From an uncultured Bacilli bacterium (GTDB taxonomy: Bacteria > Bacillota_I > Bacilli_A > RF39 > UBA660): DNA of 54,179 bases. The translations under genes and the position numbers were made by a program. Where the stretch lies: contig CANQTT010000002.1 in assembly GCA_947626855.1 (NCBI GenBank), positions 1 to 54,179 of the forward strand, in the 5' to 3' direction. Below, piece by piece: positions 5,116-52,850 of the stretch (position 1 is its first letter; each line of letters starts with the position of its first letter). Below the pieces are notes generated by a model that was not told the DNA's origin, ran no database searches, and saw only the letters and a program-made list of their open reading frames with translations.

Positions 5116-6066
5116 ATGAAAAATCCATTTCCATATTCTGATACGAATAAACGATATCACACCTTAGATTATTTCTATAAGCATAAATTTCATTCTAAAG
5201 TATGCAAAATATCCTTAAATGCAGGATTTACATGTCCTAATATTGACGGAACTGTAGGTTATGGAGGATGTATCTATTGCTCTTCCTCTGGCAGTGGTGA
5301 ATACGGTGGAAACAGTCAAGATAGCCTTCTCACACAATTCTCTAAAATTCGAGAAGTTATGAATCGAAAATGGCCTAATAGTAAATATATTGGATATTTT
5401 CAGGCTCATACGAATACTTATGCCCCACTTCCCATTTTAAAAGAAAAATATGAAACGATTTTACAATTAGAAGATGTTGTTGGGCTTGCTATCGCAACTA
5501 GACCGGATGCTATTTCGGAAGAATGCCTAGATTATCTAGAAGAATTATCCAAAAAGACTTATTTAACCGTAGAACTGGGGTTACAGACAATTCATGAAAA
5601 AACCTCCAAACTCATCAATCGTTGTCACTCTCTGGAATGTTTTGAGAGCATGGTAAAAAAATTAAGAGCCAAAAAAATTAATGTCGTTGTTCATATCATC
5701 GATGGACTTCCTTATGAAACAGAAGAGATGATGATAGAAACCGCAAAGTATTTAAATACGTTAGACATTCAGGGAATAAAGATTCACATGTTATCGATTC
5801 TAAAAAATACGGCCTTAGCGAATCTTTATGAACAAGAGAAATTCCCCATTTTAGCAAGAGATAAATATATTGAAATTGTTTGTAAACAATTAGAATATTT
5901 ACGATCAGAAATAGTCATTCATAGAATTACTGGAGATCCAAAATTAGATGATTTGATAGCTCCTTCCTGGTTAGATAAAAAAGTAACGATTTTAAATGAT
6001 ATCGACAAATATCTAGCTACCCATGATAGTTATCAGGGAAAATTGGTAAAAGAAAAAGAATCCTAA
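5116..6066 (+). CDS. TIGR01212-family radical SAM protein (YhcC-like)
   Basis: N-terminal CPNIDGTVGYGGCIYCS cluster plus the characteristic YFQAHTNTYA and RITGD motifs. Strong RBS AAGGAGG. One of only two plus-strand genes. Confidence 0.85.
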   Translation: MKNPFPYSDTNKRYHTLDYFYKHKFHSKVCKISLNAGFTCPNIDGTVGYGGCIYCSSSGSGEYGGNSQDSLLTQFSKIREVMNRKWPNSKYIGYFQAHTNTYAPLPILKEKYETILQLEDVVGLAIATRPDAISEECLDYLEELSKKTYLTVELGLQTIHEKTSKLINRCHSLECFESMVKKLRAKKINVVVHIIDGLPYETEEMMIETAKYLNTLDIQGIKIHMLSILKNTALANLYEQEKFPILARDKYIEIVCKQLEYLRSEIVIHRITGDPKLDDLIAPSWLDKKVTILNDIDKYLATHDSYQGKLVKEKES

Positions 6067-32300: not shown

Positions 32301-33620
32301 GATAACTTCTTTATTATTCTCAATATCTGTTACAACAATAGTTCCATCTAGGAAAGCATTATCAACATCTTCTAATTGGAAATTAAAAGTATTTTCCTCA
32401 TCATTGACATCAAACATATCCACATAAGGCTTCTCTTTTAAAATCTCCTTAACAATAGAAAGTGTTGTATTTACTTCCCGATTGTTTGCTAAAAGAACCT
32501 TGGTAATCTTAAATTCATGAACACCTGGTTTTGTAGGAGTATTTAAAGTCACGCTATACGTATTATTTTGATAAGTAACTGGATAATATTCTCCATCTAT
32601 TTCTATTTTTTGAATGGTTTCATTTAGTGTTACTTCCGCTTTAAACTCAAAAGTAATTTCGCCCTTCTTTACGAAAATACCACTTGGATTTTTTTCACTT
32701 AGAGCAACTTTATAATCTACTTCTTTTGTTGTATGTTCTGTACTACCAGCTGCATCTTGAATATCTACCTTACCATCATTATTGATATCATAATCTGTTT
32801 CGTTTTTCTTTTCTTCTGTTTTCGTTCCTTGCATGTCAATAAGGTATTTAATAATTTCTTCGGCATCTTCATACGTATTTTTTCCGTCTTTATTAACATC
32901 CTTTTTCTTATCGTTAGAAACCACTAAAAAGCTAGCAACCGCTACACAAACAACCGTGGCTCCCACTAATATTATAATAAGAATCTTATTCCCCTTTTTC
33001 GTAGCCAAAAGATAAAGAACACCTAACGCAAGAACTCCACCTACTAGGAAAAGTCCCATCACAATTGGCTTATTGGTAGAAACTTTGACCGGTTCTTCTT
33101 CTTGCTCTTCTATTTTATTTTCTGAATTACTAGGAGCAATCTCTCCATCTAAAGCATCCCTAGTAACCAAAAGCCTTGTCGTCGTTTTTTCAAATTCAAC
33201 AACACTATCTGCATCAGAAGAAGAAATATTGGTAAGAGCGATATTGGTATAACCGACATTGGCATCCTTTTTTACACGCAAATGAATTTGAAAGAGATTT
33301 TCATCGATCTCTCCTGATTTATTCATAACCCCAAATTTATGATTTTCTGGATTATAAAGAACACTGATATTAGGATTTTCTGCCTCGAAATCAGTATCAT
33401 CAAGAATTTCAAATACATTTTGATCATAACTAAAAGTAGCTGTCAAAGCATATAATTTCATACTTTTTGGCAACTTCGCCGTTACTAAAATCTCATCGCC
33501 TACTTCTAATTCCTTCTTATTAATCTCCAAAAGAATTTGTTCTTTTGCCGAAACTCCTACTGGCAATAGTAAGAGTACTAATAAAAATAATAAAATTTTT
33601 TGAGAAAAAATCTTTTTCAT
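26379..33620 (-). CDS. giant (2413 aa) surface protein: signal peptide, cohesin-like domain, TM hairpin, dockerin-like repeats, about 10 Ig-like repeats, ZmpA/B/C (M26)-like metalloprotease
   Basis: Signal peptide ...GVSA/KE. aa 185-234 form two hydrophobic helices. aa 241-291: DVNKDGKNTYEDAEEIIKYL and DINNDGKVDIQDAA (dockerin EF-hand pair). FTGTLNGNGYKIKNLNKPLF ... VENIRFENVVL (Zmp-type region). HTWSHESAHNID HExxH at 27519-27533. Confidence 0.85.
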   Translation of the reverse strand: MKKIFSQKILLFLLVLLLLPVGVSAKEQILLEINKKELEVGDEILVTAKLPKSMKLYALTATFSYDQNVFEILDDTDFEAENPNISVLYNPENHKFGVMNKSGEIDENLFQIHLRVKKDANVGYTNIALTNISSSDADSVVEFEKTTTRLLVTRDALDGEIAPSNSENKIEEQEEEPVKVSTNKPIVMGLFLVGGVLALGVLYLLATKKGNKILIIILVGATVVCVAVASFLVVSNDKKKDVNKDGKNTYEDAEEIIKYLIDMQGTKTEEKKNETDYDINNDGKVDIQDAAGSTEHTTKEVDYKVALSEKNPSGIFVKKGEITFEFKAEVTLNETIQKIEIDGEYYPVTYQNNTYSVTLNTPTKPGVHEFKITKVLLANNREVNTTLSIVKEILKEKPYVDMFDVNDEENTFNFQLEDVDNAFLDGTIVVTDIENNKEVINEKIKKENHFHYDFEKETTYTVEVYADYDLDSGELEEQTGIDNFHEEELIYDHHFMINSDYDFKISDVTITDVVEKDSAPVITFKSTNKENYPVSYIVVGDKEYDVTAIREDSSYEVVLTGLNTSTYGKYYLDIDSVVLDNLKKFEREKDYQQNSLTYNVLKHAPIVDNIEIINQEEEKQVLVSYQVHDDDHTMKKLTAVLVDSTDKVLDSQEISREGTFTLSYKGNSDGRYRVKFLSDYNLGTDRHDYVGMNVGEESILTQMDIYVEASTVTTPFPVKGQPKYTITYKVFVSDNFKKDHDYNELAGVTINGLNYDGNKQSGEYTSAISFTVPSESGVLDLQVDRVKLRKETYQGNSHAFFSVTPHITQIDVLKDKPTIENLEILEEDYDKGTVTFKFTVTTDKGGLEEGEVVLGEQKYPIQSGENEVTFTEVPTDEALELNFYGTYDLDTNTLKDVDDSKNSYTHELLTTVPYGLYEDSLYQEIALTEIEAISKNEDSYFEKKEDITLRFSAHLPADLDFDIAKVIINNKEYPVEKLEDEFYVTVDGYTTSGIKKIEIEEIVLSSGKKVKLTTPITVSVEVLKDAVTIEDFNYELEENNIRLDLSVKDLDSSLVGGAKEGITIAILDEDNHVIDTLPYSDEILLPLQKDILRYYINVYATYDLDISKTDNVHYHSKELLLEENISLDKNSIELKDILDVTLYTEKDGKTIPVEEVEVNTILEHQNDYFLTLTMNQMPTVYAKIKKILTDNNRLVFILDYEYVTQEKAKEKQDIRIDFGEIKNGIVRNEARPETLESFIERVKNNPDGEFTLTHDFDASTISEDTAALIDVDFTGTLNGNGYKIKNLNKPLFNTVNGGTVENIRFENVVLPSNNAKGTIANKAINATIRKVLIDGFTKTGAEGTSGTLFGEALNDTVIEECGITNFTINTAWMTQTIGGVVGYLKDSTIRNTYIVGKMDASWNFVSTFVGNAQGNSTLEGNYSKVNYHNGYATHTCGFACGTTSLVVKDNIDLNTLSGSIPYKFVSSFKESTNNYYLVNNGDSYQAQTGVKLLEQAQVDRSLFEKANFKEEIWNLKNVSYDMTPTLNIEKVSKINVKEVGDAYDENKETLYSNLLRLMPFYDSMKIVESAANIPEDHLLAQQEILHIIPVDASGNVVTYLTTENPKKIQKIRIVFKNNQMLEYSVRYDGIYDMVASYRISDLKIDYTFNHYVIDSNSQLANNLTNYLASLTYEDNLDKLTVTADSRIYREFYYDVTQKELKEFVLKYLSNSNYTNTSNNEAINDYIEKEIKQDQKLEKILYVYNYFRRFYDVEINGMKLYDLVLFSLTGFNEKMTPYDIALEFLSNDQNFKTSETNTAYTRTLSKYTGLDKITDFLAYLVEVFTDQTPSEWYASQFKGYLVELNVEGRPDIQYTLWDHVSSKDTNTGVAWYNYVLPIATLPENAAYVISTPVQFIIGSQRTYMVNPEDPVQREKFVKKVQSYAVRMKDYYATTAKLITEAKFFNDIHTVQIDKRYAYDENGNLIFQNPETTQEPFHKNFNEVIGQFAYNDYNAATANGAYVIWRVEGVMDGNLLPEEGQTYEYTYHTWSHESAHNIDARLFLKNNGRRFDAGGEDYADSNLMQSFGDGDIVMNLSRHFEKDSKISSNLDITRIDSLPEIWDFYQKLFDTVYILDYLEGQAFLQLSPEEQARLVVQASYPNEKMYEIDDKPYYRNYMTTVYHTIDKDTIQAMNLKTMDDLTKNRLVMYPTVIYSTYIDNRYGGENIYKVRWYQPHNDYGRPDSYSIKWFAYEMLGYAGYEKGYIEYFSNIHSERKTFAKVDSNGDYLYDKNGNKQTTTVDYKTDLMALQTITNDDTMTFDKYKKMRFDEVQDKLEYINILSVDEVYQEFLQALQEDAETVRKAEETAWKQYPGEDKDSENNRNKIISNARKFEKSTEVRRKYFYELKNKTNDFLDSVYNNEKTQTVTVFTEETE

Positions 33621-36576: not shown

Positions 36577-38640
36577 TTAAGCCTTCCATTCTAATCGTTT
36601 TACTTTAGCAGATTCTACTGTTCCAGTATCTTCTAACAATGCGTTTTTTAAAGAAGAAGTACCTTTTTTATCTGTTAATTCAAATTTACAATTATCTTCT
36701 ACAGTATCTGCATCTAATACAAGACGTCCATATTTTCCAGGATTCATTAAGATTTCCCATCTCGCATTCAAGGTAGAGGTTTCTATAATACTTTTTAAGG
36801 CTCTAGCCCCTGTCTTTAATTGGAATGCTTTCTCCACTACTCTATCTAGGTAACTTTCCGTCCAACAGAGAGTAACCCCTAATTTTTCCATTTTTCTTTG
36901 TTCCGCTAATAAAGCACTACAACTAGAATACAAAAGGATCTGCTTTAAACTAGTAGGCGTTGGTTCCTCTAGAGAAACAATTGTCGCAAATCGTCCCATA
37001 ATTTCATCTGGCATATTGCCATAGTGAATAAAGTCTTCTGCTTCTAGAGATAAATAAGTAGGTTCCTCCTGTTGGGAAAAACTACTAGTAAACCCAATTC
37101 TATGTGAGCGAGAAGTCAAGTTATCCTTCTTTTTCTCAGCAACAACCCTGGTAAAGGCACCGGTTGCAAAGATTGTTAAATGAGACGTATCAAATAAGAC
37201 AGTTGTTCCATTATATTTTACTTCATAGGTTGTACCTTGAATAAACGGTAGTAACATATTTAAAACACCCTTTCCCGAAATGTCACTGTCTTTTTCAGAT
37301 CCTTTTTTATCTAATTCATCAAAAACAACAATACTCTTCTGAGCAAGTTCTAGATTTCCTTTCGTTTTCGTAAGAAGTCTTACCAAATAATCCTCTAATT
37401 TTCTTCCTACATAGCCTTGAACGGTTAATTGGGTGGTATCGACAATTTCAATTGGGATATCCAAATATTTACTAATTGTCTCACAAATTAATGTTTTTCC
37501 ACTTCCTGTTGGTCCTACTAAAAGACAAGCAGTTCTCTCATCTGGCTTCTCCGATAATTGATTTGTAATGAGGGCAGAAATGACGATTTTTTTAGCTTCC
37601 TCCTGCCCGATGATAACTTGATCTAAATATTTTTTCATAGCTCTAGCATCGATGATAGTAGAAGTTGGATTGTCTGAAGAACTGTTGTTTCCTATTCTTG
37701 CATCTTGTACTAATTCATCATAGATGCGAGCAAAGTTTTGAAGATGAGAATTTTCCTTTTCAAAAAATCTTTCCATCTCCTCTTGAATACGATGAACATC
37801 ATTAAGTGCTAGAACGCACTCCAATGTATCCTGTAACGTAAGAAGATATTCCAAGAGGACATCTTCCTCTTTTCTATCTACATCGATAGAAACAAGAGAA
37901 CTAAAAACCAATTCTAAGGCTTCTTCTAAAGAACAAAGTAATTTAGATACCTCTAGGATACTAGTAGATGCTTTTATCCTTCTATTTATTTGTTGCAAAA
38001 AGGCAAGAAAACTTTTTCCTGAGAGTTTTGCGGTCGTTAAAACAGGAATATGATAGATTTCCTCACTTGTAACTCCTTGATAAAAGAGTTGAGAAACTTC
38101 TTCGCCACTTTGTAAAACCTCCGTAAGGGAAGTCCTTAATTGTTGTAAATCCTCAATCTGCAATAAATTTTCTAAATACTGTTTAGATAAAAAAACAGTA
38201 TCCTCACCATCTAAAGGTTCTTCTTTCCAAGAAGATTCTTGCCTACTATCAGTTGATCTTTCGTTTTGAAAGAGCTCTTGTATTCCATAAGACTTTAAAT
38301 AAATTTTAGCTTTTCCTTCCATATAAAAGCCTATATGAATTTGTTCTTGTATTCTATTAAAATATCTTTTACTAGCCTCACTTAAAGTCAATGATGGATA
38401 TTTTTCCTGTAATTGTTGCTCTGAAATGACAAAAGCAACACTTAATGAGCAATCCTCTATCAATGAAAGAATATTGTCAGTAAGACAATAGTGATTTCCT
38501 AATTCATCTTCAAAATATTGATTTTCATTTATTTTGCTAATTTTTCCTGATATGAAATAGCAAGGAAAGTGAAGACTCACATTCTTTTTTAATAAAATTC
38601 TACTCATCAATATTCCATAATATTTTTGTGTTTGTTCCAT
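36577..38640 (-). CDS. ClpX-like AAA+ ATPase with a non-canonical roughly 340-aa N-terminal domain
   Basis: Walker A GPTGSGKT, pore loop GYVG, Walker B VVFDELDK, IGF loop (HRIGFTSS), sensor-2 GARALKSIIE. No C4 zinc-binding N-domain. Confidence 0.75.
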   Translation of the reverse strand: MEQTQKYYGILMSRILLKKNVSLHFPCYFISGKISKINENQYFEDELGNHYCLTDNILSLIEDCSLSVAFVISEQQLQEKYPSLTLSEASKRYFNRIQEQIHIGFYMEGKAKIYLKSYGIQELFQNERSTDSRQESSWKEEPLDGEDTVFLSKQYLENLLQIEDLQQLRTSLTEVLQSGEEVSQLFYQGVTSEEIYHIPVLTTAKLSGKSFLAFLQQINRRIKASTSILEVSKLLCSLEEALELVFSSLVSIDVDRKEEDVLLEYLLTLQDTLECVLALNDVHRIQEEMERFFEKENSHLQNFARIYDELVQDARIGNNSSSDNPTSTIIDARAMKKYLDQVIIGQEEAKKIVISALITNQLSEKPDERTACLLVGPTGSGKTLICETISKYLDIPIEIVDTTQLTVQGYVGRKLEDYLVRLLTKTKGNLELAQKSIVVFDELDKKGSEKDSDISGKGVLNMLLPFIQGTTYEVKYNGTTVLFDTSHLTIFATGAFTRVVAEKKKDNLTSRSHRIGFTSSFSQQEEPTYLSLEAEDFIHYGNMPDEIMGRFATIVSLEEPTPTSLKQILLYSSCSALLAEQRKMEKLGVTLCWTESYLDRVVEKAFQLKTGARALKSIIETSTLNARWEILMNPGKYGRLVLDADTVEDNCKFELTDKKGTSSLKNALLEDTGTVESAKVKRLEWKA

Positions 38641-39862: not shown

Positions 39863-40057
39863 TTAATAATTGCTTCTTTCTCTTTTTCGTGTATTTTTAA
39901 TACCTTCATTTTTCTTTTCTCTTCTTCGAACTCCAGGTTTTTTATAACCATCTTGACGTTCGCGAGCTTTTTTAAGGAGGCCATCTCTAGCATTTTTTTG
40001 TTTCATTGTGCGTAATGCACTTTCCACGTTCCCATTTCTAACTACTACCTTTGACAT
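39863..40057 (-). CDS. rpsU: 30S ribosomal protein S21
   Basis: MSKVVVRNGNVESALRTMKQK... Start ATG 40057 lies 5 nt after AGGAGGGG. Confidence 0.93.
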   Translation of the reverse strand: MSKVVVRNGNVESALRTMKQKNARDGLLKKARERQDGYKKPGVRRREKKNEGIKNTRKRERSNY

Positions 40058-40086
40058 TGATTCCCCTCCTTTCACAAGCTAAATGT

Positions 40087-40180: not shown

Positions 40181-40215
40181 AAAAAAGGAAATATCTAACC
40201 AATCCAGATATTTCC
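40181..40215 (-). terminator. rho-independent terminator closing the bacteriocin operon
   Basis: Perfect 10-bp stem GGAAATATCT/AGATATTTCC (40206-40215 with 40187-40196), 9-nt loop, U6 (40181-40186). Overlaps the stop of the 53-aa ORF. Confidence 0.65.
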
Positions 40216-40356
40216 TGAAAAACAATAACGAATAATAGTTCCTACATATCTTCCTGCTTCTAAAAAAAGAATTCCTAACATCATACACAGGATAAGAATT
40301 AAAAAATATTTCAATATATTGGGCAAAAGAAGTTTGACTTCTATTCTACGGAACAT
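40195..40356 (-). CDS. 53-aa hydrophobic peptide, candidate bacteriocin immunity protein (absent from the ORF track)
   Basis: Hand translation: MFRRIEVKLLLPNILKYFLILILCMMLGILFLEAGRYVGTIIRYCFSGNIWIG. One clear TM helix. Starts inside the last codons of the preceding peptide gene. Weak RBS. Confidence 0.4.
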   Translation of the reverse strand: MFRRIEVKLLLPNILKYFLILILCMMLGILFLEAGRYVGTIIRYCFSGNIWIG

Positions 40357-40511
40357 ACATTTCCGGAGGCTAATCGTCTTATGACAGTTCCTAAACTTCT
40401 ACCGATATCTAAAAAAGCATTAACCCCTCTAACAATAGCGGTAATAAAAGAGGCACTGATATCTGTTCCTCCTTGAATTGATTTTAATTCCTCATCTTCT
40501 AATGTTCTCAT
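40341..40511 (-). CDS. double-glycine-leader peptide 2 (56 aa), class II bacteriocin precursor candidate (absent from the ORF track)
   Basis: Hand translation: MRTLEDEELKSIQGG/TDISASFITAIVRGVNAFLDIGRSLGTVIRRLASGNVCSVE. RBS AGGAGA lies 5 nt upstream. Leader fits the LS..EL..I.GG consensus. Confidence 0.7.
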   Translation of the reverse strand: MRTLEDEELKSIQGGTDISASFITAIVRGVNAFLDIGRSLGTVIRRLASGNVCSVE

Positions 40512-40519
40512 CGATTCTC

Positions 40520-40660
40520 CTAGTTACATTTCAGCGGTCTTACTATGCCATCTAAAACACCGATGAAAAAGGCCACTCCCATGGTAATTAAAGCCGCTAC
40601 TCCTATGGAGATTCCCCCTCCTTTCACTTGTTTCATTTCTTCTTCTTTTAATTCTCTCAT
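40520..40660 (-). CDS. double-glycine-leader peptide 1 (46 aa), class II bacteriocin precursor candidate (absent from the ORF track)
   Basis: Hand translation: MRELKEEEMKQVKGG/GISIGVAALITMGVAFFIGVLDGIVRPLKCN. The ATG overlaps the TGA of the upstream accessory gene (ATGA). Confidence 0.75.
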   Translation of the reverse strand: MRELKEEEMKQVKGGGISIGVAALITMGVAFFIGVLDGIVRPLKCN

Positions 40661-41097
40661 AACCTCAGTCCTTTCTTTATTTTCTCTATTAGTCGTTGAA
40701 ATATTGTTTTCTTATCTTTTAAAAAGGATAATTGAAATTGATGATTTTCAATCTGCCATTCTTTTGGTAAAGAAACTACCATTCTTACTTCCCAAAGGAT
40801 TGTTTTTCCATTTTCATAAGTCATGGGAGTAATTTTAGTTACTCGATATTCATAGGAATTTTGCTCTATTTTCAAATTTTGATTAGAAAGTTGAAAGAAA
40901 GTTTGATCTACAAAAACTACTACTTCTCCTTCTTGATAATATCCTTCATAAAATACTCTTTTCTCTACTTTGTAAGAAACCGCTAATAAGAGGAAGAAGA
41001 CGAAAAAAAGGATTTGTAAAAGGAAAAATGAATTTTGATAGAAAGAAGGATTATACGTTAAGATATTATAAGGTTGTTGAAATATTGGTTCTTTCAT
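40657..41097 (-). CDS. 146-aa single-pass membrane protein, candidate bacteriocin export accessory protein
   Basis: One TM (FFLLQILFFVFFLLLAV) followed by a roughly 100-aa beta-rich domain. Overlaps the ABC transporter 3' end by 32 nt and is translationally coupled to peptide 1. Confidence 0.5.
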   Translation of the reverse strand: MKEPIFQQPYNILTYNPSFYQNSFFLLQILFFVFFLLLAVSYKVEKRVFYEGYYQEGEVVVFVDQTFFQLSNQNLKIEQNSYEYRVTKITPMTYENGKTILWEVRMVVSLPKEWQIENHQFQLSFLKDKKTIFQRLIEKIKKGLRL

Positions 41098-43174
41098 TTT
41101 TTCTTTTTACATTCTCACGAAGAAATCCTTTCTCAATTCTAATTTTTCTATCAAATAAATCTAGATTAGCTTCTCGATGAGAAATGACAACAATGGTTTT
41201 ATCAGAATATTTTTGAAAGATCTGCTTTAAAATCTTTCTTTCCAAGGAAACATCTAGCTGATTTAAGCCTTCATCCACAATCAGAATCTGAAATGGTCTT
41301 AACAAAGTTCTAGCTAAAATAACTCTTTGTCTTTCCCCACCTGATAAATTTACACCATTTTCCTCTATTAATTGTAAGTAACCTAGATTTTCTTTTTGAG
41401 CGATTTCTTCGACCTCACAAATATTGGTAATCTCTTTCAACTGTTTTTCCTCCCATTTACTGGATAAAGTAATATTCTCCATCAAACTTCCCGTATAGAG
41501 ACTTTCATTTTGATGAATATAACAAATTTCTCCCAAATTCTTATAATCATTAATATCATAGTCGTTTATCCGGATCATTCCTCTTGGAACATCATAATAA
41601 CCTTTTAACAATTTAAAAAGAGTACTTTTTCCACTCCCACTACTTCCTAATACCAATACTTTCTCCCCAAACGCAATAGATAACGTAATGGCGTGTAAAA
41701 CCTCTTTTTCTGGACGGTAGGAATACGATAAATTGTCAAAAACAATCGTTCCATTAGAAAGTTTTGGCAAAAATCCTTTTTGGGATTTTTCCCTATCAAA
41801 AACAGAGATTCTTTCTAATGTTTTTTTAGCTTGTTTCGTATCTTTATCTAAATCGATTAACTCCCGAACAGGCATAAAAAAATAAGAAGATAGATTTTGA
41901 ATAGTGAGTAAAGATCCAAAGGTCAACTCCCCTTTTTTCACAAATAGGCATCCTACCAAAAGTAATAGTAACGTACTGAATTCTTCACACAATTGTTTAC
42001 TATAATTTTCTAGGCTTAACAGATTTTTTAACCGATGAAATCCATTCAAAAAAGAAACCTTTTGAGTTGCCCATTTTTCTTGATGATAACTTTCTAAGGA
42101 AATTCCTTTGATTGTTTCAAAAGAGCGTAGACATTCCACTTCCGTATTCATCAACGAAGAAGCCTCTAGTTGACACTCACGAATCTTCTCATCTAATGGT
42201 CGTTCGAATAGTTTTAAAAGAAAAAGTTCTAAAAAGAAAAATAACATTAACAAAATAGAAATTTCAGACTGCAGAAGATAAAGACAGAAAAAGGAGATAA
42301 GCATTAGAGGAATATCAATGATAAGGACAATAATCCATTTAGAAATAGCTACCTTTACATCTTCTAAAGACTGAATTCTAGATAATATATCCCCAGTGGA
42401 ATGATTATGATAATAATGATAGGAAAGTGATAAAACTTTATGAAAAGTATCTAAAGAAAGAAGAAGATCCATTTTCTTTTCTAACCATAAAAAAAGTCTA
42501 TTACGAAAAAATTCTCCTGTCAGTTTCAGAAAAGTAAAACCGGCAAACAAAAGAAAAAGGAAAAGAAAGAAAGATTCTTCTTGATCTACTTGCAATTGCT
42601 TTAACATAATTTCCCCATAAAAAGAAGTTCCTATTGCATACAGTAAAATGAAAATAGAAAAAAAGAAGATCTGCCATAAGATTTTTTTATTGGGAGAAAG
42701 GAATTGCTTTAAGCTAGTCCATTTTATTTTTTCTTCCGAAAATTGGAGTAAAGGTTTCAGTGGGTATAAAAGGATTAATGTTTCACTATAGATAGTTTTA
42801 AAGAGGTCAAACTTGATTTTTAAAATTTTATTGGCAGGATCAGCTACCAGCAATTCCCCTTTTCTAGGATTCATTTCATAGATAACCACGAAATGGGAAT
42901 ACGATTGATTCAAAGTAACATGAGCAATACAGGGAAGTAATAGTTCTCCTTCTGTTAACTTTTCAAAAGAACAATGCACTCCTTTTGCTGAAAAGCCGAC
43001 ATGCCTCATCCCCTCTACCATATCATAGGCATTTGTCCCATTCTTATCAGCATGGAATAATTCTTTTATTTTTTCAAGGCTCATGTATCCTCCGTAATAT
43101 CTTAAAATCATAGCAAAGCAAGCAACACCACAATCTTTTAATTCCTCTTGTTCAATGAAAGGATACTTTTTCGT
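41066..43174 (-). CDS. peptidase-containing ABC transporter (C39 peptidase + 6-TM + ATPase; bacteriocin exporter) with a non-canonical or mutated start codon
   Basis: C39 triad context DCGVACFAMILRYYG, HFVVIYE, VADPA. Walker A GSSGSGKST, signature LSGGERQR, Walker B ILIVDE. The first ATG (43111) lies after the catalytic Cys. ACG at 43174-43172 sits 7 nt after AGGAGG. Confidence 0.8.
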   Translation of the reverse strand, partial: TKKYPFIEQEELKDCGVACFAMILRYYGGYMSLEKIKELFHADKNGTNAYDMVEGMRHVGFSAKGVHCSFEKLTEGELLLPCIAHVTLNQSYSHFVVIYEMNPRKGELLVADPANKILKIKFDLFKTIYSETLILLYPLKPLLQFSEEKIKWTSLKQFLSPNKKILWQIFFFSIFILLYAIGTSFYGEIMLKQLQVDQEESFFLFLFLLFAGFTFLKLTGEFFRNRLFLWLEKKMDLLLSLDTFHKVLSLSYHYYHNHSTGDILSRIQSLEDVKVAISKWIIVLIIDIPLMLISFFCLYLLQSEISILLMLFFFLELFLLKLFERPLDEKIRECQLEASSLMNTEVECLRSFETIKGISLESYHQEKWATQKVSFLNGFHRLKNLLSLENYSKQLCEEFSTLLLLLVGCLFVKKGELTFGSLLTIQNLSSYFFMPVRELIDLDKDTKQAKKTLERISVFDREKSQKGFLPKLSNGTIVFDNLSYSYRPEKEVLHAITLSIAFGEKVLVLGSSGSGKSTLFKLLKGYYDVPRGMIRINDYDINDYKNLGEICYIHQNESLYTGSLMENITLSSKWEEKQLKEITNICEVEEIAQKENLGYLQLIEENGVNLSGGERQRVILARTLLRPFQILIVDEGLNQLDVSLERKILKQIFQKYSDKTIVVISHREANLDLFDRKIRIEKGFLRENVKRKNERTNISTTL

Positions 43175-43241
43175 TTTATCACCTCCTACTATATCCTTAG
43201 TGAAGAGAAAACGAATTCCTTTTTTTCAAAAAAAAAGATTC

Positions 43242-46383: not shown

Positions 46384-46638
46384 ATGTCTATGTTTGATTT
46401 CAATAAAAATATGTATATGACAAATCGCGAAGTACCGGTTTCCTATACAAATTCTGATTTTCAAAATGAAAGAGTAGGATTTTTAGGTCCTTTCTTATTA
46501 GGGGGAATTACAGGAGGATTAGTAGCACCATTTTTCTACGGTGGAGGATATGGTGGCGGTTATGGATACAATCAACCATACTATACCAATAATTACTATT
46601 ATCCACCCTATTCTTACTACAACTATCGTCCTTATTAA
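46384..46638 (+). CDS. small Gly/Tyr/Pro/Asn-rich protein with a glycine-zipper hydrophobic segment
   Basis: 84 aa: ...VGFLGPFLLGGITGGLVAPFFYGGGYGGGYGYNQPYYTNNYYYPPYSYYNYRPY. RBS AAAGGAAA. The start may be the ATG at 46390. Plus strand, unlike its neighbours. Confidence 0.55.
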   Translation: MSMFDFNKNMYMTNREVPVSYTNSDFQNERVGFLGPFLLGGITGGLVAPFFYGGGYGGGYGYNQPYYTNNYYYPPYSYYNYRPY

Positions 46639-47832: not shown

Positions 47833-49218
47833 TTAATATCCTTCTAAGCCGTTCACAACAACAGAAATATTAGGGTCATTTTCCTCATCCATCAAAAAGC
47901 TTATCAGAGAAGCACCGATGAAGCTTCCATCATACTTATCTCCTCTTTCCCATTCCTTGACTTTACCAGCAAATGTTTTTTCATAGTAATCCTTACTCAT
48001 CTTAGCGGTCACTGTTATCATATCATGAGTAATCTCTCCATTTTCGTCTTCATAGACCGAAGAAGAAATCGCCAAAACAATAGCTTCGTCAGGATGATCA
48101 TTCAAATATTTCTGCGTTTCTTGGGCAATATTTTTTACCTCCAAAATATATTCTTCGTATTCAGAAGGAGGAATAGAAGCATCTTCCAAAACGACTTGTG
48201 TTTCTAGAAAATAATTATCGGCAAGTTCATCTATTCTTTTATAAGCATCATAAAGTGGATAGGCATCTACAAAAACATACAAAATTTGAGAAGTATCTTC
48301 CTCAAATAAATTCTCAGTACTCAAAAAGCGATGATAAATAGCAATTTGATCCGCAAAATTTCTCATATCAATTGAAATCGTTTCTCCTGCTATTTCAACA
48401 ACAATAAATGCTTCTGAGAAAAAGAATGGATAATTCTTACTACTATCAAAATTTTGAAGCACTTTAAGAACTCGATCCTCTATGGATGAATAATCGACAT
48501 CATCCATATCTACAGTCAAATCTTCATTAAAATATTCCTCATCATATAAATACTCCTGAGCAAAAGTATAATAAGCACTTTGACTAAGAATGGTTCTTAA
48601 GCTAGCATCGTTTGTAAATAAATCAGTAAACGAAATCTCATTTCCTGTATTTAAATCAAAATTAAGATAAACTGTTTTTTGATCAGATTTTTTGTTATAA
48701 CCGTTTTCTATTAACTCATTAATATCATATATACAATCTGCCGAAGAAGAGATTTCAATAGATAAAACATTAGCATAACTAGATTCAATGTAAGCCTCTA
48801 CGTCAATGTAATCAAATTCACCATCTTCGAGTCTCTCTTTATGAATAGAGGAATAAACAGTATCTTTTATCTTTTGATTGATACTTTTCTGAATGCTTTT
48901 ATCTTTCAATCCTTCTATTTCATAATAACGAATTTCAATGGGATAGCGATCAATAGATTCTATTTTGTCTAACTGTTTTTCTTCTTTTAAAATAAAATGT
49001 AAATCATTTAACTGATATTTTTCATCTAAGGATTTAATGCCTAATCCATCAGATTTTATTACTTCTTTTTTATCTTCTCCAACAGAAGGGTCATTCCCTT
49101 TTTCTACTACTTTATGATTTCCTTTATTTACTATTGTAACTGCTAAAAAAGTCAATCCGATGGAAACAAGAGCAAAAACTATTAAAAATAGAATACTTTT
49201 TTTATTTGACTGGGACAT
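47833..49218 (-). CDS. membrane-anchored extracytoplasmic protein, RsiV-like (DUF4163/DUF3298-type) domains suspected
   Basis: Start ATG 49218 (MSQSNKKSILFLIVFALVSIGL), single TM. YPIEIRYYEIEGLKDKSIQKSINQKIKDTVY resembles the DUF4163 pattern. Confidence 0.45.
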   Translation of the reverse strand: MSQSNKKSILFLIVFALVSIGLTFLAVTIVNKGNHKVVEKGNDPSVGEDKKEVIKSDGLGIKSLDEKYQLNDLHFILKEEKQLDKIESIDRYPIEIRYYEIEGLKDKSIQKSINQKIKDTVYSSIHKERLEDGEFDYIDVEAYIESSYANVLSIEISSSADCIYDINELIENGYNKKSDQKTVYLNFDLNTGNEISFTDLFTNDASLRTILSQSAYYTFAQEYLYDEEYFNEDLTVDMDDVDYSSIEDRVLKVLQNFDSSKNYPFFFSEAFIVVEIAGETISIDMRNFADQIAIYHRFLSTENLFEEDTSQILYVFVDAYPLYDAYKRIDELADNYFLETQVVLEDASIPPSEYEEYILEVKNIAQETQKYLNDHPDEAIVLAISSSVYEDENGEITHDMITVTAKMSKDYYEKTFAGKVKEWERGDKYDGSFIGASLISFLMDEENDPNISVVVNGLEGY

Positions 49219-50122
49219 AACCGGCTCCCTTCGCTGTCTCCTGACCTCTATCAGAGAGCATAGCATCTACTAATTTTCGAGTTTTGCTATCCTTTGGTTC
49301 ATCTTTTCGGATAACAATATAATAAGCTGTTTGAATAGGATAACTTCCATTTTGAATGGTTTCATTCGTTGGTTCCACTCCATTGATAGCCAATAGATGA
49401 ATGCCGTTTGCGACATCAGCATCAATGTTTTGAAACATAGTAGTAGCATAATAATAGTAAGAATAACCAATAGAATGAATACCATTGTCATAATCTGATA
49501 CTAAGTTAATAATTTCAGACATTAAATCAGCGATATCTTCCTTAATTGGTTCTTTCATTTTTAAACCTTTCATAACTAAAGATAACATCCCTGTTTGACT
49601 TCCAGAATTGACTGGTCTTTGAAAAGCACGAATAGAAGCATCCTCTCCTCCTACTTCTTTCCAATTTGTAATCTCCCCCGTATATATTTTTTGAACTTGT
49701 TCTAGAGTAAGAGATTTTACAGGATTTTGACTATTCACATAGAATACAAATCCCTCCTTAACAACTGGAATAACTTCTAACTCCACTCCTTTTTCTTTTG
49801 CAAGAGCAAGTTCTTCTTCACTTGGCTCTGTTACAAGAAGCAAATCTACTTCATCATTAATCAGTCTTACATATCCAGGGTGCGTATTCGTATAATCTAA
49901 TTCTTCCTCTGAAACATCTTCTTTCCCTGTGAATTCTTTTAGAAAGGCAGTAGCAAGTGGTTGCGTCGCCAAAGAAGCATCTACTTTAGGATATTCAGAA
50001 TAATCAAAGTGAATTTTCTCCTCTTCTTTCTTTTTTTCATTATCTTTGGTGAAGTAAAAAAAGCCTCCTACACAAACCAATAAAATGACAATCATACCTA
50101 TCGTTATCATTTTTTTATTCAT
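49202..50122 (-). CDS. PstS-family (PBP-like 2) substrate-binding protein, orphan
   Basis: N-terminal anchor, ASLATQPLATAF, NSGSQTGML, IGYSYYYY. No pstCAB genes adjacent. Confidence 0.7.
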   Translation of the reverse strand: MNKKMITIGMIVILLVCVGGFFYFTKDNEKKKEEEKIHFDYSEYPKVDASLATQPLATAFLKEFTGKEDVSEEELDYTNTHPGYVRLINDEVDLLLVTEPSEEELALAKEKGVELEVIPVVKEGFVFYVNSQNPVKSLTLEQVQKIYTGEITNWKEVGGEDASIRAFQRPVNSGSQTGMLSLVMKGLKMKEPIKEDIADLMSEIINLVSDYDNGIHSIGYSYYYYATTMFQNIDADVANGIHLLAINGVEPTNETIQNGSYPIQTAYYIVIRKDEPKDSKTRKLVDAMLSDRGQETAKGAGYVPVK

Positions 50123-50197: not shown

Positions 50198-51316
50198 TTA
50201 GGAAGAAATTGGTAAGTCAATCGTAAACGTCATAAATTGATCACTTGTAACGGAAATAGTTCCGCCATGAAGTTCCACGATTTCTTTAGCAATCGCAAGT
50301 CCTAATCCATTTCCTCCTGTTTTCGTATTTCTAGAAGTATCTACGCGATAAAATTTATCAAAAATCTTTTGGATTTTTTCCTTGGAAAGTTTCTTAGCTG
50401 AATTACGGATAACGACATGAGCCATATTATCTTTTAGAAATGCCTTTAAAACAATCGTATGATCAGTACTATAATAAATCGCATTTTTTATTAAATTCGC
50501 AAAAACACGAACTAATTGTGAAGGATCTGCTTCCAGTTCGATACGCTCTGGAAGTGAAAGCTTTACCTCTTTTTGATTTTCTTTTAAAAGAGGATAAAAT
50601 TCATCGACAAGTTGTTCCAACATTAAGGATAAGTCAATGGTTTCTTTTTCCAAGACAATAGTCTCCGAATTAAATCTAGCAATCTCAAATAATTCATTGA
50701 TCAAATCCTCTAGACGATAAGATTTCTCTAGAGCAATTCCTATATATTTTTCTCTTTGGTTAGAAGGTAAGTCAGGAGATTCTTCTAATAAAGATAGATA
50801 TCCAATCATGGAGGTTAAAGGCGTTTTCAAATCATGAGCAAGATAGACAATTAAATCATTTTTACGGTTTTCTGATTCACGTGCTAAACGCTCATTTTTT
50901 TCTGATTCCATTTTTAAATGATTCATCTTTTGTTGGAGATCCCGTAATTCTGGTGGAAGTTCAATGTACTCTACCTCTTTATTTAATAAATCTTTAGAGG
51001 CTTCTGAAATAGAAAACATATAGTAAGAGATCTTCCGTAACAAACGGTAAACAAGATAAAGAAACCCAATTAACCAAAGGATAAAGAAAAAAATAGCACA
51101 TGTCTTTTTATCCAAAATGAAAAAACGAAACAGTTTTGTCAAAAACTGATAGAGAGAAAAAGATCTCACATACAGCCAATTGAAATCCATATTTAAAACG
51201 ACATGTTCTAGAAAATAAAAAATAGCACAGAGAAAAAGTGTCCATAGAATTAATTTTAAAAAGAAAAGATAAAACGTTTTACGAAAAAACCAATTTTTAG
51301 AAGATTCATTTTTCAA
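50198..51316 (-). CDS. two-component sensor histidine kinase (VanS/OmpR-partner class)
   Basis: Two N-terminal TM helices. H-box LAHDLKTPLTSMIGYLSLL, N-box NLIKNAIYYS, G-box GGNGLGLAIAKEIVELHGG. Overlaps the regulator gene by 11 nt. Confidence 0.9.
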   Translation of the reverse strand: MKNESSKNWFFRKTFYLFFLKLILWTLFLCAIFYFLEHVVLNMDFNWLYVRSFSLYQFLTKLFRFFILDKKTCAIFFFILWLIGFLYLVYRLLRKISYYMFSISEASKDLLNKEVEYIELPPELRDLQQKMNHLKMESEKNERLARESENRKNDLIVYLAHDLKTPLTSMIGYLSLLEESPDLPSNQREKYIGIALEKSYRLEDLINELFEIARFNSETIVLEKETIDLSLMLEQLVDEFYPLLKENQKEVKLSLPERIELEADPSQLVRVFANLIKNAIYYSTDHTIVLKAFLKDNMAHVVIRNSAKKLSKEKIQKIFDKFYRVDTSRNTKTGGNGLGLAIAKEIVELHGGTISVTSDQFMTFTIDLPISS

Positions 51317-51998
51317 TTTTATACCCTACTCCCCATACTGTTTGAATATATTTTTGATGACGGTTATTCGTATCCTTCATCTTTTCCCGTAAATGGCGAA
51401 TATGAACCATAACGGTATTATTATCTTTCTCGTAATACTTTTCTTTCCAAACATCAAAAAATAACTCATCTGTTCGAACTACTTTTCCCCTATTTTTGCA
51501 AAGAGTCCAAAGAATTTCAAATTCGATTGGTGTCAAATCAACCTTTTCATCATGAAAGAAGAATTCATGTGTCTCATAATTCATAACAATCTCTCGAAAA
51601 TCTATGATATTTTCATCTTCCTGATTCTGTTTATTATATTCTTTATAGCGGCGTAATTGAGCTTTGACTCGTGCTACTAATTCTAGTGGTTGAAAAGGTT
51701 TTGTAAGATAATCATCAGCCCCTAACATTAATCCTCGAATCTTATCCATTTCCTCTATCTTAGCAGTTACAAAGATAATTGGAAAAGAATACTTTTCACG
51801 GATTTTTTGGCAAAGAGAAAAACCATCAATATCAGGCATCATAACATCCAAAATCGCTAAATCAATAGATAGTGTATCTAAATCTTTTAATAAATCTTTC
51901 GCATGACTATATTTATAGACATGATAGGATTCATTTTGCAGATAGATTTCTATTAAATCGGCAATACTTGTCTCATCATCTATCACTAATATGTTCAT
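51306..51998 (-). CDS. OmpR/PhoB-family response regulator
   Basis: Receiver domain (DLAILDVMMPDIDG, KPF) and winged-helix output (TVWGVGYK). Confidence 0.92.
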   Translation of the reverse strand: MNILVIDDETSIADLIEIYLQNESYHVYKYSHAKDLLKDLDTLSIDLAILDVMMPDIDGFSLCQKIREKYSFPIIFVTAKIEEMDKIRGLMLGADDYLTKPFQPLELVARVKAQLRRYKEYNKQNQEDENIIDFREIVMNYETHEFFFHDEKVDLTPIEFEILWTLCKNRGKVVRTDELFFDVWKEKYYEKDNNTVMVHIRHLREKMKDTNNRHQKYIQTVWGVGYKIEK

Positions 51999-52037: not shown

Positions 52038-52850
52038 TTATGCTTTCGATACTTCCCATAAATTTTTAATTTGAGATTCCAATGTCTCATAATCCCACCA
52101 TTCTTGACTTCTTTTTCTACTGTTTGGATCATATACTTTTAATTTACCATCTTTTTCTCCCACTAGTATGATAAAATGACCGGTCGTTGTAAAATCGCCT
52201 GGTTTCATACTACAAATGACAACATGACCCTTGTTTAAAGCATCAAATACTTTTGATTCTGTCAAAGGAATTTCTTCACTTTGAAGTCCAAAATGTGTAG
52301 CACCTTCTAACATTAAATTCCAACTAGTTCCTGATCCCCTTACATAAAAATCGTTTTCTACTGCATATTGGGCAACCACATAAGGAGTTACTTTTTTATT
52401 TCCTGTTAAACCAATCACAGCCATAGATAATACGGTTGGACCACAACCATTTATCGCTAAGATAGTATCTCCATAAAAAGCATATCCCCAACGTTTATCC
52501 CACTGTAATAGAAAAGGAATTTCTCCTTCTTTTGCTTCCGTTACCTCCTCGCCGTAGACACGTCCTTTTTTGGTTGGATAATCGATGACGAAATCAATTG
52601 CTTCTTCCTCTGCCAATGCTAATTTTAATAATTCTTCAGGGTATTGTTCTGATTGCTTTACAATCTTACTAATTTTAGAATTTTTTTTACTTTCTTCTTC
52701 TAACTGCTTTAATAATCCATCTCTATTCTCTGTAGATTCATGGATTACGTAATTGGGCTGATAGGAATTCCAAATCCAAAAGATAGAAAAGAAACATAGG
52801 AGAAAAAGGCCAAGATAAATAAATTTTTTCTTCAATTTTCTTTTTTTCAT
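52038..52850 (-). CDS. membrane-anchored C39-like (papain-fold) cysteine peptidase domain protein
   Basis: N-terminal TM. NGCGPTVLSMAV (Cys), TTGHFIILVG (His), VYDPN (Asp). Confidence 0.65.
   Translation of the reverse strand: MKKRKLKKKFIYLGLFLLCFFSIFWIWNSYQPNYVIHESTENRDGLLKQLEEESKKNSKISKIVKQSEQYPEELLKLALAEEEAIDFVIDYPTKKGRVYGEEVTEAKEGEIPFLLQWDKRWGYAFYGDTILAINGCGPTVLSMAVIGLTGNKKVTPYVVAQYAVENDFYVRGSGTSWNLMLEGATHFGLQSEEIPLTESKVFDALNKGHVVICSMKPGDFTTTGHFIILVGEKDGKLKVYDPNSRKRSQEWWDYETLESQIKNLWEVSKA

Follow-up and report, generated by a model that had tools for sequence, protein, structure and literature searches.

A candidate class IIb-like two-peptide bacteriocin operon in an uncultured Bacilli bacterium

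Two adjacent small genes on the minus strand of contig CANQTT010000002.1 (assembly GCA_947626855.1, an uncultured Bacilli bacterium of the UBA660 lineage) raise the question of whether they encode the two halves of a bacteriocin. The whole 54,179-nt stretch that was analysed is called the window below, and gene positions are given in window coordinates. A preliminary description, made by a model from the letters and a list of open reading frames (ORFs), had proposed that both genes, here called pep1 and pep2, encode peptides with double-glycine leaders and form a candidate two-peptide bacteriocin. We estimate the probability at about 0.68 that the region is a self-contained operon whose two structural peptides make up a class IIb-like bacteriocin. 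The peptides are best read as a new family.

Paired double-glycine peptides and their relatives

Strand translation and a listing of all ORFs of at least 20 aa placed both peptide genes on the minus strand where the preliminary description had them. The pep1 precursor consists of the leader MRELKEEEMKQVKGG and the predicted mature part GISIGVAALITMGVAFFIGVLDGIVRPLKCN, and the pep2 precursor of the leader MRTLEDEELKSIQGG and the predicted mature part TDISASFITAIVRGVNAFLDIGRSLGTVIRRLASGNVCSVE. Both leaders are 15 aa long, acidic and terminated by GG, as had been reported, and positions -4, -7 and -12 are hydrophobic in both peptides (V/I, M/L and L, respectively). This spacing is what C39 peptidase domains recognise. 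The two genes lie 8 nt apart on one strand, between an accessory gene and a terminator. The ATG of pep1 overlaps the TGA of the accessory gene (ATGA, 40660-40657), in agreement with the translational coupling noted earlier, and pep2 is preceded by an AGGAG site 5 nt 5' of its ATG. The peptides had also been called unannotated; this holds for an ORF track with a 60-aa cut-off, but gene callers on public metagenome contigs call both.

Mature pep1 (31 aa, grand average of hydropathy 1.47, net charge approximately +1) is essentially a predicted transmembrane segment followed by the short polar tail RPLKCN, and mature pep2 (41 aa, net charge approximately +1) is amphipathic, with a hydrophobic moment of up to 0.69. 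An AlphaFold2 model of pep2 built on a 77-sequence alignment (mean predicted local distance difference test score (pLDDT) 82) contained a continuous helix at residues 20-49 that passes through GRSLG, together with a short leader helix and a disordered tail bearing the Cys. The GxxxG motifs were found as described (GISIG and GVLDG in pep1, GRSLG in pep2), as was exactly one Cys in each mature peptide. The conserved motifs carry opposite charges, with Asp in pep1 G-V-L-D-G and Arg in pep2 G-R-S-L-G. The two mature parts are unrelated to each other (hhalign E 0.21). The calculated monoisotopic masses of the unmodified mature peptides are 3143.76 Da for pep1 and 4277.30 Da for pep2, and that of the disulfide-linked pair is 7419.04 Da.

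A C39-peptidase ATP-binding cassette (ABC) exporter is encoded directly upstream of the peptide pair, as the preliminary description had stated, with matches to the Pfam domains Peptidase_C39 (6e-23), ABC_membrane (4e-22) and ABC_tran (3e-22); against TIGR01193 the protein scored 331 bits, under the 524-bit cut-off. Its Walker A, signature and Walker B motifs are intact.

We then asked whether the arrangement recurs elsewhere. The identical locus is present in several European Nucleotide Archive (ENA) metagenome assemblies. When pep1, pep2 and the accessory protein were used as queries in word-indexed homology searches, hardly any match other than the proteins of the window itself was obtained; the sole exception was a short contig on which a 145-aa accessory gene is followed by a pep1 relative with 53% identity. 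Only an exhaustive HMMER scan and pattern-based locus scans brought the family to light. In the exhaustive scan of pep2 against 1.84 billion cluster representatives at 50% identity, 105 relatives were obtained at E<=1e-3 (best 1.9e-10), nearly all of them 50-57-aa double-glycine peptides of the form ...GRSLGSAIRR...C. Ten of these clusters were looked up, and none had an informative name, only 'hypothetical protein'. In two of the relatives, each of about 101 aa (P0052 and P0080), a pep1-like precursor reads through into a pep2-like one to give a fusion. The pep1 part of P0080 has GFLSG, with Ser in place of Asp, and its pep2 motif is GRSFG; the Asp-Arg pairing is thus not universal, because the Asp is replaced while the pep2 part keeps its Arg.

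A genome scan with a pattern derived from the pep1 alignment identified six uncultured Bacilli genomes (rabbit, goat colon and UBA660). Five of the six have the order exporter, accessory gene, pep1, pep2 and ORF3 (a third small gene, described below), with rpsU immediately or approximately 1 kb downstream; the sixth, from UBA660, has the cluster without the accessory gene. A metagenome scan for GRSLG[ST][AV]IRR, a pattern taken from 13 closer sequences, gave 80 loci, a set biased to pep2 genes carrying that motif. These loci were classed with local hidden Markov models (HMMs), and the denominators given here count the loci with room to show the feature in question. A pep1-like gene stood directly upstream of pep2 in 75 of 79 metagenome loci and an exporter upstream in 47 of 49. 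Counting the 6 genomes and the 80 metagenome contigs together, 86 independent loci share this gene order. Many metagenome loci (L017-L096), from diverged hosts, hold it in a slot between rsmD and rpsU-yqeY, and a human-gut member found on hundreds of contigs (L097-L102) has the same five genes between the same neighbours. The family was sampled from human, rabbit and ruminant gut and from anaerobic digesters, and its hosts are uncultured low-GC Bacilli.

The relatives also allowed conservation to be assessed residue by residue. The mature pep1 family has the consensus GISIGIGLLIAAGITFLIGVIDGYVRPLKCN and the form ...AAGxTFxIGVIDG[YF]VRPL[KR]C[NR]; G..[DS]G..[RN]P..C was present in 66 of 67 relatives and a single Cys in 64 of 67, and G34xxxG38 was invariant in all 8 close relatives. 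In the pep2 family (consensus LSISGTLINSLVRGINTILDLGRSLGTAIRRIGSGNLCPL), exactly one Cys was found in 72 of 72 relatives, always within the last 5 residues, and among the database representatives it lay at most 5 residues from the C-terminus in 101 of 104. G41 and C53 of pep2 are invariant and G37 and R46 nearly so (81 sequences for G37xxxG41), and the leader columns are conserved across both peptide families.

The ratio of nonsynonymous to synonymous polymorphism (pN/pS) was 0.23 for pep1, 0.31 for pep2 and 0.28 for ORF3, from pairs 80-99% identical; these pairs are non-independent, although the direction is clear. In a 99.4%-identical variant of the locus, 12 of 13 coding differences were synonymous. 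Identity to the window was 37-69% for the mature peptides, 39-66% for YqeY and 33-43% for the exporter. The peptides are constrained and not diversifying, because their divergence tracks that of YqeY and is below that of the exporter. The number of relatives, the conserved gene order and the pattern of substitutions go far beyond chance, and each peptide is encoded by a conserved gene under selection, with a leader of 15 aa that ends in a double glycine.

Class IIb bacteriocins are defined by adjacent genes, double-glycine leaders of 15-30 residues, a dedicated exporter, an immunity gene in the operon and GxxxG motifs and, at the functional level, by synergy and membrane permeabilisation (PMC2850506). 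Each of these features that sequence can test was found in the cluster, the immunity gene as a candidate only. The class IIb-like candidate of the preliminary description is thus supported at the level of sequence by the paired double-glycine peptides, the C39 exporter, one invariant GxxxG in each peptide and a downstream membrane protein.

Assignment to a curated family was partial. Against TIGR03949 (class IIb, lactobin A/cerein 7B), pep1 scored 23.6 bits over a cut-off of 21.5, along residues 3-30 only. All 8 close pep1 relatives match this model, with relatives reaching 29.5 bits, and the pep1 family straddles the cut-off, some members scoring 20.4 bits or having no match. The match is confined to the leader plus the first, Gly/Ala-rich portion of the mature part and never reaches the pep1-family tail IGVIDGxVRPL[KR]C. 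For pep2, TIGR03949 gave 12.5 bits, below the cut-off and on the leader only, and among the Pfam and NCBIfam models this peptide stayed under every curated cut-off, with matches limited to the leader. The 27.1-bit threshold of PF10439 (Bacteriocin_IIc) was not reached by pep1 (16.2 bits) or pep2 (19.9 bits), nor were the 37 bits of the lactococcin G/enterocin 1071 models NF038034 and NF038035 (best 19.8). The leader model TIGR01847 gave 13.7 and 14.8 bits for the two peptides, just under its 15.7, and PF03047 (ComC) gave 14.3 bits against 20.4, on the leader only. Profile searches of the Protein Data Bank (PDB) with both peptides matched leaders only, with no match in the mature parts; the best match was the leader of CtA, the substrate of PCAT1. 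The peptide motif strings were absent from the searchable literature. Homology searches, cluster names and these strings all failed to connect either mature peptide to a named bacteriocin, which agrees with the earlier statement that neither had been recognised.

Candidate immunity protein, accessory protein and exporter start

Downstream of pep2 lies a gene that the preliminary description had not noticed, ORF3 (MFRRIEVKLLLPNILKYFLILILCMMLGILFLEAGRYVGTIIRYCFSGNIWIG). Its product combines a basic N-terminus and a single transmembrane helix with a C-terminal segment (GRYVGTIIR...) that resembles pep2, and it had no family match in Pfam or NCBIfam. As a conserved single-transmembrane protein encoded directly after pep2, the usual place of an immunity gene, ORF3 is a candidate immunity protein by position. 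In the gene calls of public contigs it appears only in a shorter, 29-aa form. By HMM, an ORF3-like gene followed pep2 directly in 55 of 77 loci, and at least 7 more were recognised by eye. Class IIb immunity proteins with a single transmembrane segment and the C-terminus outside include CbnZ (42 aa) and BrcI, EnkIaz and AbpIM (52-55 aa) (PMC6957408).

The likeness between ORF3 and pep2 was then assessed by profile comparison. When 72 mature pep2 sequences were compared with 48 ORF3 sequences by hhalign, the last 26 columns of each aligned with a probability of 94% and E 1.2e-7, and a smaller alignment gave E 1.9e-5. In the controls, pep1 against ORF3 gave E 0.5 and pep1 against pep2 E 0.2. The motif G...G[TS]..R was present in 48 of 48 ORF3 relatives, of which 38 also have a C-terminal Cys, and in the consensus sequences of both the pep2 and the ORF3 family the Cys stands at a distance of 12 residues from the second Gly. 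The ORF3 proteins of two loci (L010 and L011) have no Cys. The likeness of ORF3 to the C-terminal half of pep2 suggests immunity by competition; an immunity mechanism of this type has been proposed for gallocin A from the modelled resemblance of its immunity peptide to the toxin peptides (PMC10100652).

The accessory protein has an N-terminal transmembrane helix, a beta-rich outer domain and a C-terminal helix ending in KIKKGLRL, and no match was found for it in Pfam, NCBIfam or PDB sequences. Its gene (approximately 130-155 aa) stands between the exporter and pep1 in approximately 52 of 69 loci and is missing in approximately 17; the sequences thus indicate that the protein is dispensable in some lineages, because about a quarter of the related loci lack the gene. 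A single-sequence AlphaFold2 model was of moderate confidence (pLDDT 67), with a transmembrane helix at residues 17-42, strands at 48-125 and a terminal helix. All Foldseek matches to this model were non-significant; several were barrel domains of membrane-fusion proteins (MexA, AcrA, CusB and BesA). We take a possible role as a 'mini adaptor' as a lead only and do not claim kinship with HlyD.

The exporter gene has an unusual beginning. Its default ORF start is the ATG at 43111, which lies downstream of the codon for the catalytic Cys, and in the window no ATG, GTG or TTG occurs in frame before that Cys. The frame is open upstream of this ATG (...GGDKTKKYPFIEQEELKDCGVACFAM...), and the catalytic Cys of the C39 domain is encoded only if translation begins at the ACG at 43174. 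Read from this ACG, the protein keeps the C39 residues, namely the oxyanion Gln (IEQEELKDC), Cys15 (CGVAC), His (SHFVV) and Asp (VADP). The ACG sits 7 nt after an AGGAGG, relatives have ATG at the same position (e.g. GAGGAGGTGATAATATGAAAAAATATCC), and the ribosome-binding motif GAGGAGGTGA is kept at the same position in their exporter genes.

The ACG was retained in the contig of the 99.4%-identical variant, where 7 of 7 exporter differences were synonymous, one of them between the ACG and the first ATG. The exporter of another locus (L010) also starts with ACG. Because it is 72-77% identical to ATG-starting relatives and only 43% identical to the window exporter, the ACG must have arisen twice. 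At the start position of other loci, we found ATA in two further unrelated lineages, GTG in eight loci and a single TTG; the loci with such unusual starts include L010, L029, L078 and L089. In both ACG lineages, the stretch of 21 codons preceding the first ATG has stayed open, and its translation is conserved (KDCGV[AS]C). These observations argue against a pseudogene, a reading of the exporter that we rejected, and we read the recurrent weak starts as probable recurrent selection for weak initiation. The independent changes from ATG to ACG and from ATG to ATA would offer a clean natural case of non-canonical initiation for dosage control.

Features of the operon and its surroundings are listed in the table.

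Table. Features of the peptide operon, in window coordinates.
Feature	Position	Strand	Remark
C39-peptidase ABC exporter (PCAT) gene	41066..43174	-	frame read from ACG 43174-43172; first in-frame ATG 43111
Exporter ribosome-binding site AGGAGG	43182..43187	-	read off the sequence
Accessory protein gene, 146 aa	40657..41097	-	overlaps exporter 3' end by 32 nt
pep1 precursor gene, 46 aa	40520..40660	-	leader 40616-40660; predicted 31-aa mature part 40523-40615
pep2 precursor gene, 56 aa	40341..40511	-	leader 40467-40511; predicted 41-aa mature part 40344-40466
ORF3, 53 aa, candidate immunity protein	40195..40356	-	overlaps pep2 3' end by 16 nt
Intrinsic-terminator-like hairpin	40186..40216	-	13-bp stem then T run; closes the operon
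Antisense ORF, 95 aa, judged spurious	40545..40832	+	overlaps conserved minus-strand genes

On the minus strand, the operon thus runs from the exporter through the accessory gene, pep1, pep2 and ORF3 to the terminator. The antisense ORF had been dismissed as spurious in the preliminary description, and we agree, because its frame is not conserved (across 72 related loci, the antisense frames over pep1 measured between 28 and 140 codons), whereas the minus-strand genes that it overlaps are conserved and under purifying selection. Downstream of the terminator follow a near-consensus promoter-like site at 40115-40087 on the minus strand (11 of 12 matches, with a TG extension) and then rpsU, yqeY and a gene for an NrtR-type Nudix regulator. 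The ORF listing starts rpsU at a GTG (39863-40075, minus strand, 70 aa), and its relatives begin MSKV[IV]VRNG, a start matched in the window by the ATG at 40057 (64 aa). Upstream of the exporter, the window has a U32 peptidase gene where many relatives have rsmD; we considered this peptidase as a component of the system and rejected it, as it is missing from the relatives' loci. The GC content is flat across the region at 31-33%, the native level, and a horizontal-transfer island was rejected on this basis. Neither an RNA family nor a tRNA was found near the operon. The only Rfam match in the window was a ribosomal protein L10 leader (RF00557, 15903-16022, minus strand, 72.6 bits).

Several other genes of the window were recorded. 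A stand-alone 270-aa Peptidase_C39_2 protein (52038-52850, minus strand) lies beside a HisKA/OmpR-type system (50198-51998) and a PstS-like binding protein (49202-50122). This two-component system was considered as a regulator of the cluster and rejected, being PhoR/PhoP-like and adjoining the PstS-like gene. An 84-aa ORF (46384-46638, plus strand) has an extremely Gly/Tyr-rich C-terminal half (GGGYGGGYGYNQPYYTNNYYYPPYSYYNYRPY) and is called as a gene on the matching ENA contig (L001, 460-681). A 2413-aa secreted or anchored protein (26379-33620, minus strand) has a signal peptide and repeated domains, and near its C-terminal third it contains HESAHN, which resembles a zinc-protease motif. A 687-aa AAA+ protein (36577-38640, minus strand) carries a ClpX/ClpB-like ATPase module (AAA_2 and ClpB_D2-small) behind an N-terminal region of approximately 330 aa with no family match.

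Weighing the bacteriocin reading

We propose that the system would work as follows. The peptidase domain of the exporter would cut each precursor after the GG at residue 15, and the hydrophobic 31-aa pep1 and the amphipathic, helical 41-aa pep2 would be exported. On a related target cell, the two helices may pack through the pep1 G-V-L-D-G and pep2 G-R-S-L-G motifs with their opposite charges, and the pair would penetrate the membrane and make it leak; as in other class IIb systems, a membrane protein would probably serve as the docking site. The C-terminal Cys of each peptide may stabilise or activate the pair, an intermolecular disulfide being one option. ORF3 would protect the producer: as a predicted single-pass protein whose N-terminus, by the positive-inside rule, would be inside, it may show a copy of the pep2 GxxxG-to-Cys segment at the outer face, where it could compete with pep2 for pep1 or for a receptor. 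The small accessory protein may help in export or immunity, and the ACG start may hold exporter levels low without inactivating the gene.

A bolder version, in which three traits jointly mark a distinct subclass, is tentative and in our judgement unlikely. The peptides would form a covalent or thiol-dependent heterodimer through the one invariant C-terminal Cys that each carries after the charge-complementary GxxxG pair. ORF3 would have come from a duplicate of pep2 and would act as a membrane-anchored decoy, keeping GxxxG-x11-Cys in most members and capturing pep1 before lethal pairing. The cluster would be a core-genome trait kept in a gut Bacilli lineage, its exporter lowered by recurrent ACG, ATA, GTG and TTG starts.

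Several observations weigh against the two-peptide bacteriocin. Approximately 11 of the 77 related loci have no ORF3-like gene, and the ORF3 of the window lacks the Cys at the usual family position, having one six residues after the motif instead. The chromosomal slot by rpsU-yqeY is conserved across widely diverged hosts, which is unusually stable for a bacteriocin locus. The peptides evolve no faster than the housekeeping YqeY, and the locus has native GC content, a pattern that also fits a physiological role. Compared with classical class IIb peptides, these are less cationic, with mature net charges of only approximately +1 each. The exporter has no canonical start before its catalytic Cys, and a start at ATG 43111 would give a dead peptidase and unprocessed peptides. 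The host organism is uncultured. Stable disulfides are disfavoured in anaerobic gut habitats. Beyond the gene structure, finally, everything is what we infer from sequence, including the antimicrobial activity, the synergy and the intermolecular disulfide of the pair.

These observations bear unequally on the other explanations. That the exported pair is not a weapon and instead serves physiology or signalling throughout the lineage, for example in cell-cell communication, membrane homeostasis or self-recognition, with ORF3 as membrane partner or receptor, is unlikely in our view, although it would account for the conserved slot between rsmD and rpsU-yqeY in diverged hosts, for a peptide divergence like that of YqeY and slower than that of the cluster's own exporter, for the native GC content and for pN/pS values of 0.23-0.31 that give no sign of diversifying selection; the weak, sub-threshold ComC match on the leader points the same way. 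However, in none of the inspected loci is a LytTR/HPK10-type sensor encoded within or next to the cluster, and the sole two-component system of the window, of the HisKA/OmpR type and next to the PstS-like gene, is 7-9 kb off. A transmembrane-like peptide of 31 aa and an amphipathic helix of 41 aa are also far larger and more hydrophobic than typical pheromones, and two GxxxG-paired peptides followed by a small membrane protein are the signature of class IIb (PMC2850506). The ACG start raises a separate doubt, namely that the locus is silent or crippled in this genome, its exporter ATG having mutated to ACG so that the peptides would be made and neither processed nor exported. The ACG does stand where ATG aligns in relatives, with no in-frame ATG, GTG or TTG before the catalytic Cys, and a simple scan gave no sigma-70-like promoter upstream of the exporter. 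We nevertheless regard such inactivation as distinctly unlikely: the ACG has been retained in the near-identical variant, whose exporter differences are all synonymous, the 21 codons before the first ATG are open and conserved as protein in both ACG lineages, an independent ACG occurs in L010, and ATA, GTG and TTG are found at the start position elsewhere.

The pairing itself can also be questioned. Many class II loci hold several unrelated double-glycine peptides, and the lack of relationship between the mature parts of pep1 and pep2 would suit two one-peptide (class IId) bacteriocins that act independently and are served by one exporter. We give this little credence, as it leaves aside the 1:1 fixed-order pairing in 75 of 79 loci, the one candidate immunity gene for both peptides and the one invariant GxxxG, of opposite charge, and one invariant Cys in each; pep1, essentially an uncharged transmembrane segment, is moreover unlikely to be soluble or active alone. 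The nearly invariant single Cys per peptide needs explaining under any scheme, and it could be the site of a cross-link or modification made by enzymes encoded elsewhere, the peptides then being precursors of ribosomally synthesised and post-translationally modified peptides (RiPPs). Weak sub-threshold matches of the leaders to lanthipeptide and radical-SAM RiPP leader models would agree with such an origin, which we consider very improbable: the conserved five-gene cluster contains no modification enzyme in more than 80 loci, the exporter being its sole enzyme, and the window's single radical-SAM gene (5116-6066), of general Radical_SAM_C architecture, lies at a distance of 35 kb. In addition, the single Cys is far from any conserved Ser/Thr, which would make the ring implausibly large.

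If the two-peptide bacteriocin is active, it would represent a large, wholly uncharacterised bacteriocin family, with no fewer than 105 sequence clusters, and would supply narrow-spectrum antimicrobials for use against a hard-to-study clade of low-GC Bacilli. It would also offer a tractable test of the class IIb immunity mechanism, since the likeness of ORF3 to pep2 yields a direct hypothesis that mutations can probe. From the one conserved Cys in each peptide, a redox-dependent or covalent heterodimer is predicted; our literature search found no class IIb example of this and no relevant paper on an intermolecular disulfide in two-peptide bacteriocins.

Comparison with known systems

The exporter has the same domain architecture as PCAT1 of Clostridium thermocellum, whose structure has been solved, and the leader of the PCAT1 substrate CtA, RELTDEELMEMTGG, resembles the pep1 leader MRELKEEEMKQVKGG. 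PCAT1 has unrelated cargo, however, and neither a small accessory protein nor paired peptides. The accessory protein likewise differs from HlyD-type accessory proteins (LcnD/ComB-like), which have approximately 450 aa and HlyD-family matches, whereas the protein described here has 146 aa and no family assignment.

Gallocin A of Streptococcus gallolyticus (GllA1/GllA2/GIP) is likewise a gut two-peptide system with few charged residues, in which Cys is essential for activity and the immunity peptide resembles the toxin peptides (PMC10100652). The gallocin peptides are helical hairpins, each with two Cys and an intramolecular disulfide; here, each peptide has one Cys, and pep2 is modelled as a straight helix. 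In contrast to gallocin A, the likeness between ORF3 and pep2 is detectable in the sequence and is confined to the C-terminal 26 residues.

Parallels in gene arrangement are found in the classical class IIb bacteriocins (lactococcin G, plantaricin EF/JK, enterocin 1071 and carnobacteriocin XY), which also have an adjacent double-glycine pair in one operon, GxxxG motifs and predicted helices. The lactococcin G operon likewise includes a dedicated C39-ABC exporter together with an accessory gene, and the classical loci also have a small membrane protein encoded directly downstream (CbnZ, BrcI and AbpIM, 42-55 aa; PMC6957408, PMC2850506). The present peptides differ in having no sequence similarity to the classical ones in their mature parts and in carrying an invariant C-terminal Cys in each member of the pair. 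The cluster is set apart further by its organisation, with the exporter gene in first place and a chromosomal position that is syntenic across the whole lineage.

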